Shown here in pieces: positions 3,930 to 61,332 of a stretch of DNA of 64,000 nt; the stretch's first letter is position 1; each line of letters opens with the position of its first letter. Under the pieces are notes generated by a model. It was not told the DNA's origin. It searched no databases and saw only the letters and a program-made list of their open reading frames with translations. A program made the translations under genes and the position numbers. Source of the stretch: a virus (lineage: Duplodnaviria > Caudoviricetes); IMG/VR virus record IMGVR_UViG_3300028797_000101, positions 32,001-96,000 of that record; one strand, written 5' to 3'.

Positions 3930-5093
3930 ATGGGTTACAGTTCATTAGTTTCTTACATAAAGCTAAGTCCAAATAAAAACAGCCCTCGAAACCATAAGAT
4001 TGATTCTGTAGCTATTCACTGTATGGCAGGGAATCTATCTGTAGAGACTTGTGGAGATTTGTTTGCTAATCCAGAAAGAAAAGCGTCGTCAAACTATGGA
4101 ATTGGTTCAGATGGTAGGATTGCTCTTTATGTAGATGAAAATGATAGATCCTGGTGTACATCTTCTGGTGGTGTAGATCATAGGGCAATCACAATAGAAG
4201 TCGCTAACAGCAGTATTGGTGATCCATGGCCTGTTTCTGATGCTGCGTATCAATCTCTTTTGAATCTTCTAACTGACATATGTAGAAGGAATCAGATATC
4301 TTCGCTAAGATGGATGGCCAATAAAGCGTATGCTGTTACAGCAGCTAACGGAGGTCCGGTAGATCAGCAAAACATGTTTGTACATAGATGGTTTGCTGCA
4401 AAAGCATGTCCAGGTGACTATCTTTACAACGCACATGGTGCAATTGCTACAGAAGTAAACAGACGTCTTGCATCAGGAGCTCCTATCACTCCAGTAGTTT
4501 CTACTGCAGCTCCTACCGTAGCTATTGATAGGTCTAAACTGAGACCATATGTCCCTATTCTAGATAGAGACTCACCAACTCCTAATTACTCTCAATTTTA
4601 TGCAAACGGTGTAGTAGGTGCGATTGTAGAAGCTGGATATCAGTTTACATCTGCACACATTCGTGTTGAAAACTTCAGAAATCCTAAGGCCTACGATCAG
4701 GTTCAAGCTCTTATCTCTGTGAGACTTCCCTTCGGCTACTACATGATAGCAAGAGCACAAAATTTATCGGAAGTTAGAGAGGAAATGTATCAGCTATCAT
4801 TTCTGGTAAGAAAATACTCTCCAGGGCTTGGTGTGTGGTTGCAATTAGATCTTCCTAAAAATCAACCAGATATAAATGATAATATCTTAAACGCATATAA
4901 GACATATCTCATAAAATTAGGTCTTGTAGGTAAGATAGGAATATATGCTGATAGCAGTACAATCAAAAGTATCAACTGGAGCAAGCATTATCACGAATGG
5001 CTTCTGTGGTATGTAGATAGAGTTTCTGGAGTTGGTCAATTATCTACTGTATTTGACTCTTCGTTCTTCGCTATGTCAGGGAGGTACACATAA
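3930..5093 (+). CDS. Virion-associated N-acetylmuramoyl-L-alanine amidase (Amidase_2) plus GH25-like domain
   Basis: AIHC, SSNYGIG, TIEVA and HRWFAAKACPG motifs; the C-terminal half has a GH25-like pattern. Confidence 0.8.
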   Translation: MGYSSLVSYIKLSPNKNSPRNHKIDSVAIHCMAGNLSVETCGDLFANPERKASSNYGIGSDGRIALYVDENDRSWCTSSGGVDHRAITIEVANSSIGDPWPVSDAAYQSLLNLLTDICRRNQISSLRWMANKAYAVTAANGGPVDQQNMFVHRWFAAKACPGDYLYNAHGAIATEVNRRLASGAPITPVVSTAAPTVAIDRSKLRPYVPILDRDSPTPNYSQFYANGVVGAIVEAGYQFTSAHIRVENFRNPKAYDQVQALISVRLPFGYYMIARAQNLSEVREEMYQLSFLVRKYSPGLGVWLQLDLPKNQPDINDNILNAYKTYLIKLGLVGKIGIYADSSTIKSINWSKHYHEWLLWYVDRVSGVGQLSTVFDSSFFAMSGRYT

Positions 5094-6763
5094 TGGCGTT
5101 TATAGGCTACACTGATACAGACTCCTTAAAAGCTCATGTGCTTTCTGCAAGACAATGGTGGACTAAGGGAACATACAATGATTGTATATTAGGAAACAAC
5201 GCAAATATTGATAGGCCTTGGATAGGTAGTGTACTTCCGAACTGCACAGGCTACGCTTATGGAAGATTCTCAGAGATCCTGCAGAAGAATGCAAAGCTTC
5301 CTATCAGCGATGCTGGTACTTGGTACGCTAATGTTAAAGGTTATGAAAAGGGAAGTAAGCCGAAGATTGGTGCTGTTGCTGTTTGGACAAAACCGGGAGC
5401 TGCCGGTCATGTTGCTATCGTAGAGAAGATAAATGTAGATGGTTCTATTGTGCTTTCTGAAAGTGGATGGTCTGCGTCTAAGATATGTTGGACTTCTGTT
5501 CAGCAGCCACCTAACTACTACAAAGCTCCTTATCAGCTACAAGGATTTATCTACAATCCTCATGTAAATCTAAATAACAAAGTTTATGATTTCTTGAAAG
5601 AAGCTTCAAAGCATGTTGGCGAAGATGGTACATGGACCTGGAAAACTACAGGAATGATTGCAGGAGCTCCTTGGGCAGCAGGATTTATTCTTGCCGTAGG
5701 CAGAACAGTAGGCGATATAATCGACAAAGTTATATTCAACTCAGCTGGTGCAGGAGAGATGGCCAGAGGTGGAGTAGTAAATGGATTAGGAAGATGGATA
5801 AGAGGACCTCATCATGGGCCGTCTTATGTAGTCACTCCAAATCCAGGAGATCTAATACTGTATAGATGGAAGCCTGCAATGAGTTACACGCAAGCCGATG
5901 AATATGTTTCTGATCACATAGGAATTGTTTATCAAGCAGAGAATCAAGTAGTGTATACTATAGAAGGAAACAACGGAGGTATCTGTAAACTTACATCGCA
6001 TAGTATCTCAGATACAACTATCAACGGCTACTATAGACCGTACTGGGAGAGGATTGGCGGGTCGGCAAATGGATATGCTTCTGATGGACTAGAGATGGCT
6101 GTAAGTATGGCCTACAGAGTATTTACATCCGATGACATGACATTGAGGGAAGTGGGTTACATGACAACCAACGCACAACCTTCTATACAATCAACAGGAA
6201 TTCGTCTTGCGGTGATAAATTACACAGATGCATTAGCATCGCTCATCAATGCATATGGTCAGACTGTTGCAGGTGGAGAGATAGTAATAGACGGTGGAGC
6301 TCAAGCAGTTAACATCAACTTACTTTCCAACAACAATGCTAAGATAATCGGTCAGTTTCTTCTAAGCAAAGGAATGAATATTTCACAGGTAGTCGGATTT
6401 CTCGCTAACATACAAGCAGAGTCAAGCTACAGTCCTGCCGCAGTGAATTCTCGTTCAGGAGCTAGTGGAATTTGTCAGTGGTTAGGAAGTAGAAAAACTG
6501 CAATGATAAAAGCCTGCGGAGCTGAATGGAAAACAAATCTTTCTGGGCAGCTGAATTTTATCTGGACAGAGCTAAACAGTACTGAGAAGAATACATGGAA
6601 TCTCTTGCAATCAAGGATTACATCCATTAGTCAATCAGCTGCTGAGGATGCTGCAGAGCTCATAACACGATACTATGAAAGACCCGGTAACTATGATTCA
6701 TCTGTGCCACCACGCAGAGCAATCGCTGCTAGCATCTGGAAACAGATACTTGTCGTCAATTAG
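5093..6763 (+). CDS. Tail-associated lysin: CHAP + second CHAP-like + phage tail lysozyme domain
   Basis: PNCTGYAYGR/GHVAIVE (CHAP); DHIGIV/TIEGN (second CHAP-like); ANIQAES, GICQW and YYERP (Phage_lysozyme2-like). Confidence 0.85.
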   Translation: MAFIGYTDTDSLKAHVLSARQWWTKGTYNDCILGNNANIDRPWIGSVLPNCTGYAYGRFSEILQKNAKLPISDAGTWYANVKGYEKGSKPKIGAVAVWTKPGAAGHVAIVEKINVDGSIVLSESGWSASKICWTSVQQPPNYYKAPYQLQGFIYNPHVNLNNKVYDFLKEASKHVGEDGTWTWKTTGMIAGAPWAAGFILAVGRTVGDIIDKVIFNSAGAGEMARGGVVNGLGRWIRGPHHGPSYVVTPNPGDLILYRWKPAMSYTQADEYVSDHIGIVYQAENQVVYTIEGNNGGICKLTSHSISDTTINGYYRPYWERIGGSANGYASDGLEMAVSMAYRVFTSDDMTLREVGYMTTNAQPSIQSTGIRLAVINYTDALASLINAYGQTVAGGEIVIDGGAQAVNINLLSNNNAKIIGQFLLSKGMNISQVVGFLANIQAESSYSPAAVNSRSGASGICQWLGSRKTAMIKACGAEWKTNLSGQLNFIWTELNSTEKNTWNLLQSRITSISQSAAEDAAELITRYYERPGNYDSSVPPRRAIAASIWKQILVVN

Positions 6764-31621: not shown

Positions 31622-32029
31622 ATGAGAATTTCTGTTAACAAACATACAGTGACAGCATCTCAGAGAATTGTAGCTGCAGATGAAGATAATCCATTTGAGG
31701 GAATGCAGGCAGACAAGGTCGAGGAGGACAACTTCGATACCTCTTTTGAATCTACTGAGGATGATGTAACAGATCAGTTAGACGACATATCTGATGATGT
31801 TGAAGACCTTCAGGACGCTTTATCTGATGTTCAGGAGGATGACACAAACATCGAGATAGACAACAACATCTCCGGACATTACATAGCTGAATGTGAGAGA
31901 TGTCATGGAATCTTTATTTCAGCTGTAACCGAATCTGATCAAACTGTCAAGAAAATAACCGGTGTGTGTCCTCTGTGTGACAGAGAGACAGATCAGTATT
32001 TGAAATGGGTGGTGAAGGATATTGAGTAA
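31622..32029 (+). CDS. Acidic Zn-ribbon protein, VTAS/IVAAD leader
   Basis: CERC..CPLC; late-type motif at 31564. Confidence 0.65.
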   Translation: MRISVNKHTVTASQRIVAADEDNPFEGMQADKVEEDNFDTSFESTEDDVTDQLDDISDDVEDLQDALSDVQEDDTNIEIDNNISGHYIAECERCHGIFISAVTESDQTVKKITGVCPLCDRETDQYLKWVVKDIE

Positions 32030-51515: not shown

Positions 51516-51857
51516 ATGAAACTGCATATTAGTTCCGCATCAAACAGTGATGCACCATATACAGCCAAGCTGTTCTACAATACAGCTTGTGCTGAGCGTA
51601 GACCCTATCGCAATCGGGAAGAATTCAGAGAGGATTTTTCGATAGTAAACGTCCCTGGAGCTAATGACCTTGAAGCTTTTGAAAATCTCCAGGATTTTTT
51701 AGACGAGTACCAGGACTTCAAGACTCCTCAAGAATACATAGACTTCTGGGATTCTCAAGACCTTGGAGATGGTTCTACTATTGTCCTTTGGGTCAAAAGA
51801 GGCTCTAAGTATGTTTACAACTCCGGGTTGACTATGAAGGATCTTTGGGAGAGTTAA
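51516..51857 (+). CDS. Acidic hypothetical protein, MKLHISSAS leader
   Basis: GAGGAG SD. Confidence 0.6.
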   Translation: MKLHISSASNSDAPYTAKLFYNTACAERRPYRNREEFREDFSIVNVPGANDLEAFENLQDFLDEYQDFKTPQEYIDFWDSQDLGDGSTIVLWVKRGSKYVYNSGLTMKDLWES

Positions 51858-51873
51858 CTACTAAATAACTTCA

Positions 51874-51992
51874 TTCGCAGTTTTGTACAAAACCTGACAT
51901 CCTGCGAAACATAAATGAAAAATAACGGATACATATTGAAACAAAAGTAAGGTCCGTTCATGTATCTCTATACACATGCACGGACTTATTTT
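51874..51992 (+). promoter_or_regulatory. Candidate preQ1-I-like riboswitch 1 with terminator platform
   Basis: TTCGCAG/CTGCGAA stem, 21-nt loop TT..ATC, A-rich tail, then a terminator-like hairpin 51952-51992. Confidence 0.6.
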
Positions 51993-52002
51993 ATGGTAAT
52001 AT

Positions 52003-52064
52003 CCGCAGTTTGGTTTTACTTTCCCAGTCCTGCGGTTTACAAATAAAAACACTACTAAAGGAGG
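52003..52064 (+). promoter_or_regulatory. Candidate preQ1-I-like riboswitch 2 (translational, queF SD)
   Basis: CCGCAG/CTGCGG stem, 21-nt loop TT..GTC, A-rich tail running into AAAGGAGG. Confidence 0.6.
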
Positions 52065-52073
52065 ACATGAATA

Positions 52074-52607
52074 ATGTCAGAAACAAAAAGCAACATTGCA
52101 CAGAGAAGTAAAGAGGAGTTGAGGGCAGATGGTGTGACTTTGCTTGGTGCAGGCCATACTGAGTACCCTAACACCTACAATCCAGGAGTGCTTCAGTCAT
52201 TTGAGAACAAGAACAAAGATGTCGATTATGTAATTACTTTCGACATTACAGAAGGCACAAGCCTTTGCCCTGTTACGCATCAGCCAGATTTCTTTAAGAT
52301 GGTTGTTACGTACATTCCTGCAGATAGATGCCTCGAATCAAAATCTGCAAAGTTATACAATTTTGGTTGGAGAGAGACTCCTTCCTACCATGAGGATATT
52401 GTCAATACTACTATGAAGGATATCAGAGATCTTATCCACCCGAAACTGATCGTAGTCAAAGGTATATTCTCGGTTCGTGGTGGCATCGCCTTGTTCCCTG
52501 TAGCTACATATGCTGATCCTAAGTATCCTGAGTATGTTGAGATGGAGAAGCAGATCAAGATGCAGTCCATGTGCGATGCAATCAATCGTACTGTCAAGTA
52601 TGACTAA
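52074..52607 (+). CDS. queF: NADPH-dependent preQ0 reductase (type I)
   Basis: GVTLLG, SLCPVT.QPDF, ESKSAKLY, HED and RGGI motifs. Confidence 0.9.
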   Translation: MSETKSNIAQRSKEELRADGVTLLGAGHTEYPNTYNPGVLQSFENKNKDVDYVITFDITEGTSLCPVTHQPDFFKMVVTYIPADRCLESKSAKLYNFGWRETPSYHEDIVNTTMKDIRDLIHPKLIVVKGIFSVRGGIALFPVATYADPKYPEYVEMEKQIKMQSMCDAINRTVKYD

Positions 52608-52631: not shown

Positions 52632-53372
52632 ATGAAAGCGATAGTATTGAATTCAGGCGGTATGGACAGCTCAACGCTAGTCGGCGTGGCTGTTGAAAAA
52701 TATGGCAAAGAAAATGTAGTAACTGCAAGCTTGTTTTACGGACAGAAGCATTTCAAGGAGTTAGAGTGTGCTAAAAAGATTGCAGAATACTACGGAGTAC
52801 GTCACATTGAGGAGGATGTGTCATGCGTAATGAAGTATGCAGGCGATGTTTGCTCTCTCATTCAGGGCTCTAAAGACGAAATCATAGACAAAAGTTATGC
52901 TGATCAGATCGCAGAGAACGGAGAAGGCAGAGTCAACAGTTATGTACCCTTCCGGAATGGTCTCTTTTTATCAATCGCTGCGGCTTATGCAGATAGCTTG
53001 TTTCCAGGAGAGCCTTCCGAAGTATGGTACGGGGCTCACACGGACGACGCCGCAGGAAATGCGTATGCAGATTGCTCCTCAGAATTTGCAGAAGCTATGA
53101 ACAAAGCAATAAATATCGGCACATACGGAAACATAAATGTAGTGAGACCTCTCATCAACATGAACAAGGCCGATGTGTGTAGAGAAGGACTTAAGTTAAA
53201 TGTTCCTTATCACCTCACCACATCTTGCTATCATGGTAGAGAGAAGGCTTGTGGAAAGTGTGGAACATGTTTAGATCGCATTGAAGCATTTCGTGCAAAC
53301 GGTGTGATTGACCCTGTTGAGTATGAATCTGCTGTCGATTGGACAGGATGCAAGCCGGTTGAGATTCAGTAA
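52632..53372 (+). CDS. queC: 7-cyano-7-deazaguanine synthase
   Basis: SGGMDS, YGQKH, YVPFRN, Y.DC and SCY..CGKCGTC motifs. Confidence 0.95.
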   Translation: MKAIVLNSGGMDSSTLVGVAVEKYGKENVVTASLFYGQKHFKELECAKKIAEYYGVRHIEEDVSCVMKYAGDVCSLIQGSKDEIIDKSYADQIAENGEGRVNSYVPFRNGLFLSIAAAYADSLFPGEPSEVWYGAHTDDAAGNAYADCSSEFAEAMNKAINIGTYGNINVVRPLINMNKADVCREGLKLNVPYHLTTSCYHGREKACGKCGTCLDRIEAFRANGVIDPVEYESAVDWTGCKPVEIQ

Positions 53373-53385
53373 AGGAGAACATAGT

Positions 53386-53817
53386 ATGGCTACAGAAGTA
53401 GAAACTTATTTTTCATTCGAGGCAGCTCATAGGCTGTATGATGTTGACACGTATTCTGAGGAGTGCCGAAATAATCTTCATGGGCACTCTTATGTAGTTA
53501 AAGTAGTAGTGTCTAGTCGGAGCCTCAACAATGCGGGAATGGTGATTGACTTCAAGCTTCTTAAGAAGATTCTCAAGGAGACTATTGAGGACAAGTATGA
53601 TCATTCTTGTATTCTTCGTTCCTGTGATCCACTTGCAGAGGTTGTAAAGGCTAATTGTAAGAAGGTTCACATTGTAGAAGATAATCCTACTGCCGAGTGG
53701 ATGGCTAAGAAATTTTTCATGGATATCTTGTTTGCTCTTTCTTCCATGGAGTATATTACTGTTGAAAAAGTTTCTGTTCAGGAGACAGAACATAACATTG
53801 CTACGTTCATGGGGTGA
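53386..53817 (+). CDS. queD: 6-carboxytetrahydropterin synthase
   Basis: FEAAHRL, C.NLHGHSY, GMVIDF, DH, PTAE and ET motifs; SD before ATG 53386. Confidence 0.95.
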   Translation: MATEVETYFSFEAAHRLYDVDTYSEECRNNLHGHSYVVKVVVSSRSLNNAGMVIDFKLLKKILKETIEDKYDHSCILRSCDPLAEVVKANCKKVHIVEDNPTAEWMAKKFFMDILFALSSMEYITVEKVSVQETEHNIATFMG

Positions 53818-53821
53818 TAAG

Positions 53822-54457
53822 ATGAAAATAACAGAAATTTTCAAAAGTATTTCAGGTGAATCTATACAGGCCGGATATCCGGCAACATTCATAAGAACAC
53901 ATGGATGTTTGCTAAGATGCAGCTATTGCGATTCGATGTATGCTGTAGAAGGCGATGGCTACGGGAACATGTCAATCGCTGAGATATTAGAGACAGTGCT
54001 GAAGCTAAACTGCAAGCGAATTGTGTTAACTGGTGGTGAGCCGCTCATTCAGCATGATGCATTTGATCTTGTTCAAGAACTTCTTGCTTATGGATGTTCT
54101 GTAGAGATTGAAACATGCGGCGCAGTAGATATTTCAAAGTATATTTTACCTGGCGTAATTGTTACCATGGACTGGAAATCTATAAGCAGCGGAATGAATG
54201 GCAGAATGCTGCCAAGCAACTTGAGTAAGCTTCGAGATACAGATGTACTTAAGTTTGTAGTTTCTACCGAGGATGATCTAGAAGACATGGCTAAAGTATC
54301 AACACAAACTAAAGCACAGTGCTTCGTCAGTCCGATATTTGGGAAAATTGACCCGCAGGAGATTGTCATGTATCTTATCCAGAATGATCTCAACAACATT
54401 CGGATTCAATTACAGCTACATAAAATAATTTGGGATCCAAACAGAAAAGGAGTGTAA
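53822..54457 (+). CDS. queE: 7-carboxy-7-deazaguanine synthase (radical SAM)
   Basis: [21 protein letters not shown] and QLHK motifs. Confidence 0.95.
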
Positions 54458-54458
54458 C

Positions 54459-55034
54459 ATGAAGAATATAGACAGCAAGAAGATCGAAGAGCTTACAAGA
54501 GAGTTTCTCATAGCTCTCGGAGATGATCCAGATCGCGAAGGGTTGAAGAAAACACCCTACAGAGTAGGTAAGATGTGTCAAGAGATTTTTGAAGGAATGC
54601 AGTATACTAATGAAAATATTGCGAAGATGTTCAACACCTGTTTTGAAGATGTAGCGACTGGCGATTTAGTTGTAGAGTGTCACATTCCTATTCACAGCTT
54701 CTGCGAGCATCATTTGATGCTAATGTACGAAGTAGATGTAGCTATCGGCTACATTCCTAATGGCCGTGTCATTGGTCTCAGTAAACTCGCAAGGATTGCA
54801 GACATGGTAGGCAAAAGACTTCAGCTTCAGGAGAGAATTGGTTCTGACATTGCCGATATTTTACAAATGGTTCTGAATACAGAAGACATCATTGTAGTTA
54901 TCGAGGGTAAACACGGCTGCATGACAGCAAGGGGCATCAAAGCTAGAGAAGCTGTAACGCGTACCGCTACACTTAGAGGTAGATTTAACACAGATTCTGA
55001 TCTGAGGGCGGAGTTCTATTCTTTAATAAAGTAG
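54459..55034 (+). CDS. folE: GTP cyclohydrolase I
   Basis: REGL..TP.R, CEHH, GLSKLAR, QLQER and H.CM..RG motifs. Confidence 0.95.
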
Positions 55035-55058
55035 TGCTTCGTTATAGCATATGATACT

Positions 55059-55122
55059 AGTCATGGTTCAGTGAACCTCACCTAATCCCATGACTCAAAA
55101 TAATGAAAAACCAAAAAGGAGG
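55059..55122 (+). promoter_or_regulatory. Candidate preQ1-I-like riboswitch 3 (translational, transporter SD)
   Basis: AGTCATGG/CCATGACT stem, 21-nt loop TTC..ATC, A-rich tail into AGGAGG; TCGTTAT motif at 55039. Confidence 0.65.
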
Positions 55123-55132
55123 AACTTAGAAC

Positions 55133-55855
55133 ATGAATTCTAAGAAAACAAGTCTTGTAGCGGACTATAAAATGCTACTCAGAAACGTACCTGCCCTTGT
55201 AACTGTCACATTTGTTGTCGGTACGCTTGCGATGAACTTAGCTGCCGCTAAGGTGATCTTCAATTTCGGCATCGTTGCCGGAACAGGCGGAATAATTCTG
55301 TCATGGCTTCCTTTCTTATGCATGGACACAGTGTCTAAGCATTTCGGAGCTAGGGCATCAATACTTCTTAACATCTTATCGTCGGCATTCAACATCTTAG
55401 TAACTATCTTTCTTGCAATCGTCGCAGCAATTCCTACTGAGCAAGATTATTCTGCGTTCAATACTTCATTTAGCGCAGTATGGTTTATTGTAGTAGCATC
55501 TAATGTCGCATTCATTCTTTCGGGAGTAGTAAACTCACTTCTTAATGTATCTGTTGGCAAATTGTTTAAAAATAAAACCAGCGGAGCTGAGTTCTTTACA
55601 AGGAGTGCGATTTCGACATTTGTCGGACAGGTAGTTGATAATTTCTTATTCATGTGGCTTCTTTATACTGTCTTCGCACCTATTTTCTGGGGCATGGAGC
55701 CTATGTCTGCTTTAACCTGTCTTGGAACTGGAATTCTTGGCGGCTTGCTAGAACTTGTATGTGAATTGATTCTTACACCCTTCGGCTACAAGATCATCAA
55801 GAACTGGGAACGCGATGGCGTAGGTCAAGAGTACATTGATGCACATAATGCGTAA
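55133..55855 (+). CDS. yhhQ: Queuosine-precursor transporter (YhhQ/VUT family)
   Basis: About 6 TM segments; N..A.K, FL..D....FG and R...ST..GQ..DN..F motifs; que context. Confidence 0.8.
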   Translation: MNSKKTSLVADYKMLLRNVPALVTVTFVVGTLAMNLAAAKVIFNFGIVAGTGGIILSWLPFLCMDTVSKHFGARASILLNILSSAFNILVTIFLAIVAAIPTEQDYSAFNTSFSAVWFIVVASNVAFILSGVVNSLLNVSVGKLFKNKTSGAEFFTRSAISTFVGQVVDNFLFMWLLYTVFAPIFWGMEPMSALTCLGTGILGGLLELVCELILTPFGYKIIKNWERDGVGQEYIDAHNA

Positions 55856-55917: not shown

Positions 55918-55990
55918 ACTGGTTCGTTATAGTTATCACAACCTTAAATACTATCAGTAGTAACACAATATCTGAATAAAGGAGGTTTAT

Positions 55991-56380: not shown

Positions 56381-56466
56381 ATTATCAAATAGAGCATATC
56401 TCAGTACATAGGTATGCTCTATCTTTATGGTTGAATCGTTATATACTACAGTAAGGAGGTATTCAG

Positions 56467-57993
56467 ATGAATATAAACAACTATAAGGGTCTAGAAACAC
56501 TATCTGCTCTAGAGTTAGGCGAAAAGGTAAATTTCAAAGAAATTTCACCTGTAGAGGTAATCGAATATTTTAGAGCACGAGTAGAATCTAGAAACCCCTC
56601 TATCAATGCATTTGTGTATACAAAGTTTGATGAAGCACTGAAAGAAGCCGAAGAACTAGAGAAGATGATACTCGCAGGAGATCATTTCAAGCCTCTGGCA
56701 GGTGTACCAATTGGGTTGAAAGACTTCTTGCCCACCAAGAAAGGATGGACAGCGTCACATGGCGGAGTGCCAAGTTTAATAACTGTCGATGATTGCGATT
56801 CTGAGTTCTACAAAGCTGCAAAGAGCTTAGGTGCAATCGCCATTGGGAAGACTAATGCACCTTCTTTCGGATTCCGCGGTGTATGCGATAACAAGATGTA
56901 TGGACCTACCTCAACTCCATTCAATGTAAAATACAATTCTGGCGGGTCGTCTGGTGGTTCTGCATCAGCAGTAGGTGATGGACTTGCACTTGCGTGTGAA
57001 GGAGGAGATGCTGGCGGATCTACTAGAATTCCGTCTGCTTGGTGTGGATGCTTTGGGTTCAAACCGTCTGCCGGAATTGTTCCAAGTGTATGTAGGCCTG
57101 ATGCTTGGGCCGCAACACACCCGTATTGCTGTTCTGGCCCAATCACGAAAACTGTATCAGATGCCGCAGCTATTCTCAGAAAGATGATAAGATTCGATTT
57201 ACGCGACCCTCTCAGTGTTCCAGTACCCGCAAATCTTCTGAGTATATGCGCCGACCTTGTAACACACCTGAACAAGCCGCTAGAAGGCGTTAGGATCGGT
57301 GTAACTAAGACATTCGATATTTTTCCTAATCCGGATGATCCTGTTTCATCTGCCATTGATGAAGCTGCAAAACTGCTTAAAGATCTGGGCGCAGAAATCG
57401 TTGAGACGAAATTCGATTTCGGATGTGATCGGGAATACATAGAAAACATGTGGTTACGAAGCATCAGTATCGATACTGCACTTGATTTTGAATGCAACAG
57501 AATTGCTACAGGAGAAGACATGCTTGAGAAGTTGCAAGATGAGCTTCCGATTAAGATGATGGTATGGACTAGAATAGCATTCTCATCGACTATGATGGAT
57601 TACAGGAAGTTTCATGAAATCCGAACAAAGATACTGGATGAGCATTTCAAGAACTTTGAAAAATGCGATATCTTACTAGCTCCGGTTACCGGTTGTTTAC
57701 CAGTTCTGAATAAAAATACAGATGCTGAGGGCCTTGTTGCAGGACCTTCTTTCATAGGCGGAGAGAAAGTTGATCCCTTCATCGGTTTTGGATACACCTA
57801 TCTTGAAAACTTGACTGGATTTCCGGCTGCATCTGTACCATTCAAGATAGATTCAGCTAACAATCTTCCTGTAGGTATCCAGTTAATCGGCAGAAGATAC
57901 ATGGACGATGAAGTTATCAATGTGGCCAGATGTATTGAATACGTTCACCCTTGGAGAGATTTCTACAAGATTCCTTTTGGTAGATCGTTATAA
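56467..57993 (+). CDS. Amidase-signature family enzyme (GatA-like fold)
   Basis: GVPIGLKD, GKTN, GGSSGGSA, DAGGSTRIP and LPVGIQL motifs (Lys-Ser-Ser triad). Confidence 0.9.
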   Translation: MNINNYKGLETLSALELGEKVNFKEISPVEVIEYFRARVESRNPSINAFVYTKFDEALKEAEELEKMILAGDHFKPLAGVPIGLKDFLPTKKGWTASHGGVPSLITVDDCDSEFYKAAKSLGAIAIGKTNAPSFGFRGVCDNKMYGPTSTPFNVKYNSGGSSGGSASAVGDGLALACEGGDAGGSTRIPSAWCGCFGFKPSAGIVPSVCRPDAWAATHPYCCSGPITKTVSDAAAILRKMIRFDLRDPLSVPVPANLLSICADLVTHLNKPLEGVRIGVTKTFDIFPNPDDPVSSAIDEAAKLLKDLGAEIVETKFDFGCDREYIENMWLRSISIDTALDFECNRIATGEDMLEKLQDELPIKMMVWTRIAFSSTMMDYRKFHEIRTKILDEHFKNFEKCDILLAPVTGCLPVLNKNTDAEGLVAGPSFIGGEKVDPFIGFGYTYLENLTGFPAASVPFKIDSANNLPVGIQLIGRRYMDDEVINVARCIEYVHPWRDFYKIPFGRSL

Positions 57994-61129: not shown

Positions 61130-61270
61130 TGTAAGCAGAATCTCGACTACGAGAAACTGTGTAATGGGCTGTTGGCGAGCCCTCAAAGAATAAGGCTCTC
61201 GTAGCAACCTTCTTTGGAATCCCAGTGGCTTTAGCCGCTGGGAGTGTCAAATACTCCTCAATAGCTCAAT
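61130..61270 (+). ncRNA. Orphan TnpB omega-RNA (scaffold 61130-61250 plus guide)
   Basis: Colinear with 23653-23777; right-end hairpin CCCAGTGGCT/AGCCGCTGGG plus TCAA; no adjacent tnpB. Confidence 0.75.
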
Positions 61271-61330
61271 CGGTTAGTTAGCGCTCGCTTGTTAACCGAG
61301 TTGTTGCAGGTTCGAGTCCTACCTGGGGAG
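61255..61330 (+). pseudogene. Degenerate tRNA-Asn(GUU)
   Basis: Recognisable cloverleaf with a GTT anticodon but a mismatch in each of the four stems. Confidence 0.7.
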
Positions 61331-61332
61331 TT

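Follow-up and report, generated by a model that had tools for sequence, protein, structure and literature searches.

The window analysed here (64,000 nt, positions 32,001 to 96,000 of the IMG/VR record IMGVR_UViG_3300028797_000101) is part of a complete 159-kb phage genome with terminal repeats, and carries on its plus strand a set of 7-deazaguanine synthesis genes. The first of these is queF (52074-52607, +), which encodes the nitrile reductase that converts preQ0 to preQ1 and is identified by Pfam QueF as well as by NCBIfam TIGR03139 (preQ(1) synthase; 118.8 bits, cut-off 86.9). The protein has the catalytic-type Cys within SLCPVTHQPD and also the motif ESKSAKLY. Pfam further identifies queC (52632-53372, +), queD/PTPS (53308-53817, +, start uncertain), the radical SAM gene queE (53732-54457, +) and folE (54459-55034, +), and all five synthesis genes lie 3' of the leader elements termed units 1 and 2 below. 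A DpdA-like transglycosylase homologue, 38% identical to Gp7 of Streptococcus phage Dp-1, is encoded outside the window (G000:C1:137527-138306); the Pfam TGT search of the phage genome found no DpdA, and NCBIfam also misses this homologue. The region around it (L495) has the promoter-like motif TCGTTATA about 290 nt upstream of the gene, and no riboswitch copy was found there. The complete preQ1 pathway in the window and the DpdA homologue in the genome, as obtained from Pfam, NCBIfam and the Dp-1 Gp7 search, bear out the phage deazaguanine pathway that a preliminary description had proposed from the letters of the sequence. PHROGs gave no match for the neighbouring genes. The DNA of Dp-1 carries dPreQ1, and several deazaguanine bases are in use among phages (PMC6884629). 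Thus, with queF-queC-queD-queE-folE and a DpdA homologue, the phage is equipped to make preQ1 and, presumably, to insert a 7-deazaguanine into its DNA like Dp-1.

The leader of queF holds two similar elements, unit 1 with a terminator and unit 2 with the Shine-Dalgarno (SD) sequence, all inside 190 nt upstream of the gene. The aptamer of unit 1 (51874-51930, +) is made of a 7-bp stem, P1, formed by TTCGCAG (51874-51880) and CTGCGAA (51902-51908), a 21-nt loop (51881-51901) and an A-rich tail (51909-51930) that ends in AACGGAUACA. Its presumed P2 joins GG of the tail (51927-51928) to CC of the loop (51893-51894) and is only 2-3 bp long. The expression platform (51950-51994, +) consists of a terminator hairpin (51950-51987) with a computed dG of -15.8 kcal/mol, followed by a U-rich tract (51988-51994; AUUUUAU). 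Folding also gives an antiterminator, in which the tail (51924-51930) pairs with the 5' arm of the terminator (51953-51959; -8.4 kcal/mol) before the 3' arm has been made. A simple terminator scanner left the hairpin unflagged, which we attribute to the 10-nt loop and the interrupted U tract, since these break the rule of the scanner. The aptamer of unit 2 (52003-52064, +) includes the queF SD and has a 6-bp P1 of CCGCAG (52003-52008) and CTGCGG (52030-52035), a 21-nt loop (52009-52029) and a tail (52036-52056) that leads into the SD AAAGGAGG (52057-52064), nine bases 5' of the queF ATG at 52074. In both units, the loop starts with TT after a G-C pair and ends with ATC or GTC. The pattern CGCAGTTT..TCCTGCG is found at two places in the window, where 0.00 are expected, and the fold of the complete leader has a z of -3.7. 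An extended -10-like sequence, TGGTAATAT (51994-52002), overlaps the terminator U tract directly 5' of unit 2; if active, it would let transcripts begin inside unit 2 and escape both switches, leaving the two units uncoupled.

Much of this had been anticipated in the preliminary description. The layout of unit 1 (stem, 21-nt loop, A-rich tail) and the two loops of exactly 21 nt with a TT opening and an (A/G)TC end are present in the sequence as it said, its competing antiterminator and terminator were both recovered by computation, with the hairpin at 51950-51987, and the two-level control that it suggested has a counterpart in the terminator platform of unit 1 and the SD platform of unit 2, found by sequence and folding. 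It differs in one detail, the pairing of the unit 2 loop at the SD, for which a comparison with the family favours UUUCC (52020-52024) with GGAGG (52060-52064) no less than CTTT with AAAG.

A third element, unit 3 (55059-55122, +), lies 5' of yhhQ, ahead of the next transcription unit. It has a P1 (55060-55066 with 55088-55094), a 21-nt loop (55067-55087) followed by an A-rich tail, and the SD GGAGG (55118-55122), to the GAGG of which the loop CCUC (55076-55079) is able to pair. The stem sequence differs from those of units 1 and 2, whereas loop length and loop ends are equal. The gene yhhQ (55133-55855, +), identified by Pfam Vut_1 and NCBIfam TIGR00697 (59.5 bits, cut-off 50.95), encodes a transporter of queuosine precursors (preQ0/preQ1). 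Directly upstream of unit 3 is a copy of TCGTTATA (55039-55046, +), a motif with 13 forward sites and one reverse site in the phage genome, as against 4 and 3 for the controls, and also present upstream of yhhQ-leader copies in other phage loci (L002, L003, L004). Its sites, which include 55039-55046, 55924-55931 and 56436-56443 of the window and others elsewhere in the genome, usually lie in intergenic leaders, and the motif is probably part of a phage promoter. An amidase-family gene (56467-57993) follows shortly 3' of yhhQ with a 129-aa ORF between them, and in a related contig (L350, oriented, 4225-5703) an amidase-family gene lies directly 3' of yhhQ; this gene may be part of the deazaguanine module.

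Copies and distribution of the RNA family

Comparison with other phages shows that these units belong to a conserved RNA family and are not chance hairpins. The same element, with different stem sequences, is found in the yhhQ leaders of three other phages, two of which have a further copy between yhhQ and queF. A first covariance model was built from eight copies (those of the window phage and of the three others) and, on the four whole phage genomes, found only the 8 known copies. When applied to 84 phage loci (757 kb) fetched through YhhQ and QueF protein alignments, it gave 81 matches (49 distinct), all on the gene strand and most of them ending at a gene start. A search of viral contigs with a single QueF protein had found no match, and the protein alignments were needed. 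Among 53 distinct copies, the gene that follows encodes a YhhQ homologue in 32 cases and a QueF homologue in 19. Retrieval by protein is biased toward YhhQ and QueF, and therefore the search was repeated from the RNA side, using an RNA-only pattern on IMG/VR in which P1 was left unspecified. This matched 61 IMG/VR stretches, equal to 50 distinct sites. A P1 of 5-8 bp flanks 47 of these sites, and 46 have YhhQ (30) or QueF (16) directly downstream. Two RNA-only sites without any P1 were set aside as evident false positives. In the negative controls, unrelated viral DNA totalling 1.59 Mb, there were two matches, both at chance level (E 0.68 and 0.35). Loose IUPAC scans of viral contigs had yielded loci from which the motif was absent in every case among the matches listed, and these loci were used as negative controls.

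In all, the family has over 60 distinct copies in uncultured gut phages, and one more is found in the queF leader of Streptococcus phage Dp-1. The Dp-1 copy (L491:77-130, HQ268735), unannotated in the record, lies between the annotated promoter -10 box and the queF RBS, and has a P1 of AGCAG/CUGCU, an 18-nt loop, an A-rich tail and AGGAGG. The RNA pattern was also run on 185,579 prokaryote genomes and gave four real matches, one per MAG. Three of these are on contigs of 127-142 kb that encode a homologue of the capsid protein of this phage (68-69% identical in two, 29% in the third), and so represent phage DNA binned into MAGs; a bacterial origin of the MAG copies was rejected, as the contigs carry the capsid homologue or are short. 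No family copy was found in 150 other Lachnospiraceae genomes. In the searches of this analysis, the family is so far found only in phage DNA. In the literature we found no description of it, though McCown 2014, Sabri 2011 and the 2024 MMBR review might mention the Dp-1 leader.

The relation of the window units to the family was assessed with a leave-out model (R3) built from other genomes, with no window sequence, and searched over the 64-kb window. The score is 48.2 bits for unit 1 (E 4e-7) and 31.3 bits for unit 2 (E 7e-4). Unit 3 is missed with default filters and reaches 13.3 bits with filters off, and is described as divergent because of this score of only 13 bits. Its position is that of clear family members found 5' of yhhQ genes that are 62-66% identical (L249, L250), and the architecture together with this orthologous position support its homology to the family. 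Units 2 and 3 both lack the loop motifs UGUA and UGA(C/A)A described below and keep every other family feature; judged by their scores with the model made without the window (31 and 13 bits), they appear to be divergent members.

Conserved structure of the family

The stem P1 shows strong compensatory covariation. Over 49 distinct rows, 97.2% of P1 cells are paired, compared with 60% after shuffling and 37-54% after sliding of the partner strand; in 90 cells both sides have changed, and the G-C pair that closes the stem never varies. The second helix, P2, joins CCU of the loop to AGG of the tail, and the pair adjacent to these forms in 80% of the copies, compared with 64% in shuffles (p 0.002). 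Replacements of the whole of P2 are also seen, viz., AACCUU with AAGGUU in the terminator-type copies, GCCUU with AAGGC in L321, CUCAU with AUGAG in L540 and UCUACU with AGUAGA in L546. The pair counts exclude a MAFFT alignment (A5), in which the tails were misaligned. Together, the covariation of P1 and P2 describes an H-type pseudoknot, P1 with a P2 from the loop to the 3' tail, which is the architecture expected of preQ1-I.

Outside the helices, the unpaired U1, U2 and the last C of the loop are present in 53/53 distinct copies, and G5, U6, A7, G-6, A-5, A-3 and the A run of the tail in more than 85%. The additional loop bases UGUA and UGA(C/A)A are likewise kept in more than 85% of copies, and tail positions 13-17 and 19-20 after the top of P1 are A in 43-51 of the 53. 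Loop length varies, with 19 nt in 2 copies, 20 in 17, 21 in 21, 22 in 9, 25 in 1 and 28 in 3, which with the 18 nt of Dp-1 gives a range of 18-28 nt, so that the 21 nt of the window units is no rule of the family. The first connecting loop, L1, is about 7-9 nt long and carries UGUA, L2 is about 6-7 nt with UGA(C/A)A, and L3 about 13-16 nt. A 2-bp inner helix of N4-G5 with bases -6 and -7 is pairable in 96-98% of copies, its changes being mostly one-sided, and is proposed only tentatively. A Watson-Crick helix between UUUUGU of the loop and ACAAAA of the tail was considered and dropped, as the UUA and UUC loop variants are uncompensated in the tail. In one lineage (L259:3890-3968 and L260), the A-rich tail contains an extra 14-nt hairpin (CAGCAGAAAUGCUG); variable insertions of this sort are typical of genuine structured RNAs.

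Expression platforms and tandem arrangement

In most copies, the 3' strand of P2 is the Shine-Dalgarno sequence itself. A second kind of platform is seen in the copies between yhhQ and queF in L249, L250, L323 and L325, where the tail AGGUUACAC has the same sequence as the 3' arm of a strong downstream terminator, and can therefore pair either with the loop or with the 5' arm of the terminator. These four and L321 follow the logic of unit 1 with longer complementarity, and unit 1 itself is of the terminator-type design with a shorter one. In L249 and L250, TCGTTATA sits between aptamer and terminator. This placement hints at additional control and could be taken to favour a leader that works without a small molecule, either as a pseudoknot operator to which a phage or host protein binds or as a constitutive brake or timing device. 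Such a leader would have to account for an association with queF and yhhQ that is exclusive across many phage lineages, including that of Dp-1, for about a dozen near-invariant unpaired bases located where preQ1-I contacts its ligand, and for a single aptamer core that is combined with expression platforms of two kinds. Such features are classic for a metabolite sensor, and we regard a ligand-free leader as very unlikely.

A tandem riboswitch has two complete aptamers, each with its own platform, in one leader, and this is what the window has upstream of queF. The same succession of a terminator-type unit and an SD-type unit upstream of queF is seen in one other phage lineage (L321/L322). A 2022 review lists preQ1-I, -II and -III among the riboswitch classes never found in tandem (PMC9481103). 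It could be argued that only unit 1 works as a sensor and that units 2 and/or 3 are decayed duplicates, which keep an SD-occluding hairpin and provide no true two-level control, given that both lack UGUA and UGA(C/A)A and score only 31 and 13 bits. However, both retain P1, the 21-nt loop, the UU, the terminal UC-C, the A-rich tail and the anti-SD, and another copy (L252) has the same loop ends as these two. Also, unit 3 is found exactly where clear members are located in relatives, and the combination of a terminator unit with an SD unit recurs in L321/L322. Hence, decay of units 2 and/or 3 appears unlikely. Two family copies 260 nt apart also occur upstream of a single yhhQ in L546 (4247-4575); the first is followed only by a mini-ORF of 2 to 6 codons, and the second has its own TATAAT box and the fully compensated P2 (UCUACU with AGUAGA).

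Comparison with known riboswitches and proposed function

Rfam 15 found only tRNAs in the window at gathering score, and RF00522 (preQ1-I) at gathering score found no match in the window or in 21 related loci. The models of preQ1-II (RF01054) and preQ1-III (RF02680) likewise had no match in the window, and none of the three preQ1 models had one at gathering score in 17 related loci. With permissive filters and E up to 10, the preQ1-I, -II and -III models found no match on 51800-52120 or 55030-55145, and the Dp-1 leader gave no preQ1 match in Rfam either at gathering score or at E up to 10. In one related phage locus (L261:7792-7828), Rfam matched an abiF RNA with 40.6 bits (gathering score 37). 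The comparisons with Rfam and the wider covariance-model search had both been proposed in the preliminary description, which held the units to be an aptamer subtype with an enlarged loop. The former left no match to RF00522 or to classes II and III, the latter found homologues tied to queF and yhhQ, and the units indeed appear as copies of one conserved, covarying pseudoknot family. Given the absence of an Rfam preQ1 match and a loop about twice the size of that of class I, the units are described as preQ1-I-like and not as members of RF00522.

Several features are nevertheless common to the phage family and preQ1-I (RF00522, types I-III). Both form an H-type pseudoknot with a G-C-closed P1, a U(U) after the 5' strand of P1, a C before its 3' strand and an A-rich L3, and in both P2 either takes in the first bases of the SD or leads to a terminator. 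As here, the targets of control by preQ1-I are queCDEF-type operons and yhhQ. The UU, the specificity C, the A-rich L3 and the SD pairing are described for the preQ1-I types, and type III controls E. coli yhhQ (PMC11625349, PMC10622847); examples are those of Carnobacterium antarcticum, B. subtilis/T. tengcongensis and the E. coli yhhQ leader (PMC11625349, PMC10622847). In contrast to the 18-28 nt of the phage family, the preQ1-I loop is about 8-14 nt, and by description (PMC10622847, PMC11625349) preQ1-I is compact, about 34 nt, with an L1 of 1-3 nt and a short L2, all of which are larger in the phage family; its tail is longer, too. The dinucleotide before the 3' strand of P1 is UC in type I, which binds two ligands, and AC in types II and III, whereas in the phage family the base before the C is C, U or G (CC 24, UC 20, GC 9, never AC), with UC in all three window copies. 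Also, the phage family is known here from phage DNA only.

Other systems offer partial parallels. In the preQ1-I riboswitch of B. subtilis queC, the 3' tail joins either P2 or an antiterminator that competes with an intrinsic terminator, forming an OFF switch on a que operon, as is proposed for unit 1; its aptamer core differs, and the P2 of unit 1 has only 2-3 bp. The tandem TPP, AdoCbl and SAM-I riboswitches (PMC9481103) have two complete aptamers in one leader with their own platforms, presumably sensing the same ligand, as is presumed here, with a sharper response expected. Unlike these, the phage tandem combines two kinds of platform, termination followed by translation. The preQ1-II and preQ1-III riboswitches resemble the phage family in controlling preQ1 transporter genes, and preQ1-II also in burying the SD in the pseudoknot helix; preQ1-III is known from gut Ruminococcaceae. 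Both differ from the phage family in being HLout pseudoknots that span about 80-100 nt and contain extra helices.

What the data above show directly is the family with its structure, its two kinds of expression platform and its link to queF and yhhQ. Based on these, we propose, with a probability of roughly 70%, that units 1-3 represent a phage-borne, preQ1-I-like riboswitch family that senses a 7-deazaguanine base and throttles the queF operon and yhhQ. When the base is plentiful, it would stabilise P2. In unit 1, P2 would then withdraw the GG-containing segment of the tail from the antiterminator, such that the hairpin at 51950-51987 terminates transcription before queF-queC-queD-queE-folE; in unit 2, it would cover the SD of queF, and in unit 3 that of yhhQ. 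The phage would in this way throttle both synthesis and import of the base that the DpdA homologue presumably puts into DNA, with the synthesis operon under control at two successive levels. Here we infer the ligand, the OFF direction and the presence of units 1 and 2 on one transcript.

The ligand is most likely preQ1, with preQ0 as the main alternative. The YhhQ family has been reported to prefer preQ0 (PMC10622847), and therefore the ligand could be preQ0; also, the pocket-forming loops differ from those of all three preQ1 classes, and the use of several deazaguanine bases by phages (PMC6884629) would allow for another 7-deazaguanine or purine derivative of phage DNA modification, with the RNA family and the switching logic unchanged. 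However, the operon starts with a true QueF, a preQ(1) synthase above the NCBIfam cut-off, and therefore preQ1 is the free-base end product of the pathway. Dp-1, which carries the element, has dPreQ1 in its DNA (PMC6884629), and the specificity-type C and the UU are the same as in preQ1-I. Thus, a ligand other than preQ1 seems quite unlikely, and a sensor of preQ1 is preferred. The enlarged L1, L2 and L3 may nonetheless form a different pocket, and it is conceivable, though doubtful, that the family represents, rather than class I with an insertion, a fourth structural class of 7-deazaguanine-sensing riboswitch, so far only viral, in which the enlarged L1 and L2 and the long A-tail build a different pocket, perhaps for preQ0 or two ligands.

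If the proposed reading is true, the phage family is an uncatalogued addition to the best-studied small riboswitch family, its tandem is the first natural one of any preQ1-type sensor, and phages use metabolite sensors of their own to control the amount of a precursor of DNA hypermodification. As a copy is carried by the cultured phage Dp-1, in which dPreQ1 DNA has been measured, the idea is directly testable at the bench, and inclusion of the family in Rfam would improve the annotation of phage 7-deazaguanine clusters. The base may also have a second use in this phage. A tRNA-Asn (GUU) is present in the phage tRNA cluster (61254-61331 of the window), and it is tRNAs with GUN anticodons that receive queuosine (PMC11130926); with such an anticodon at hand, phage-made preQ1 could also serve tRNA modification.
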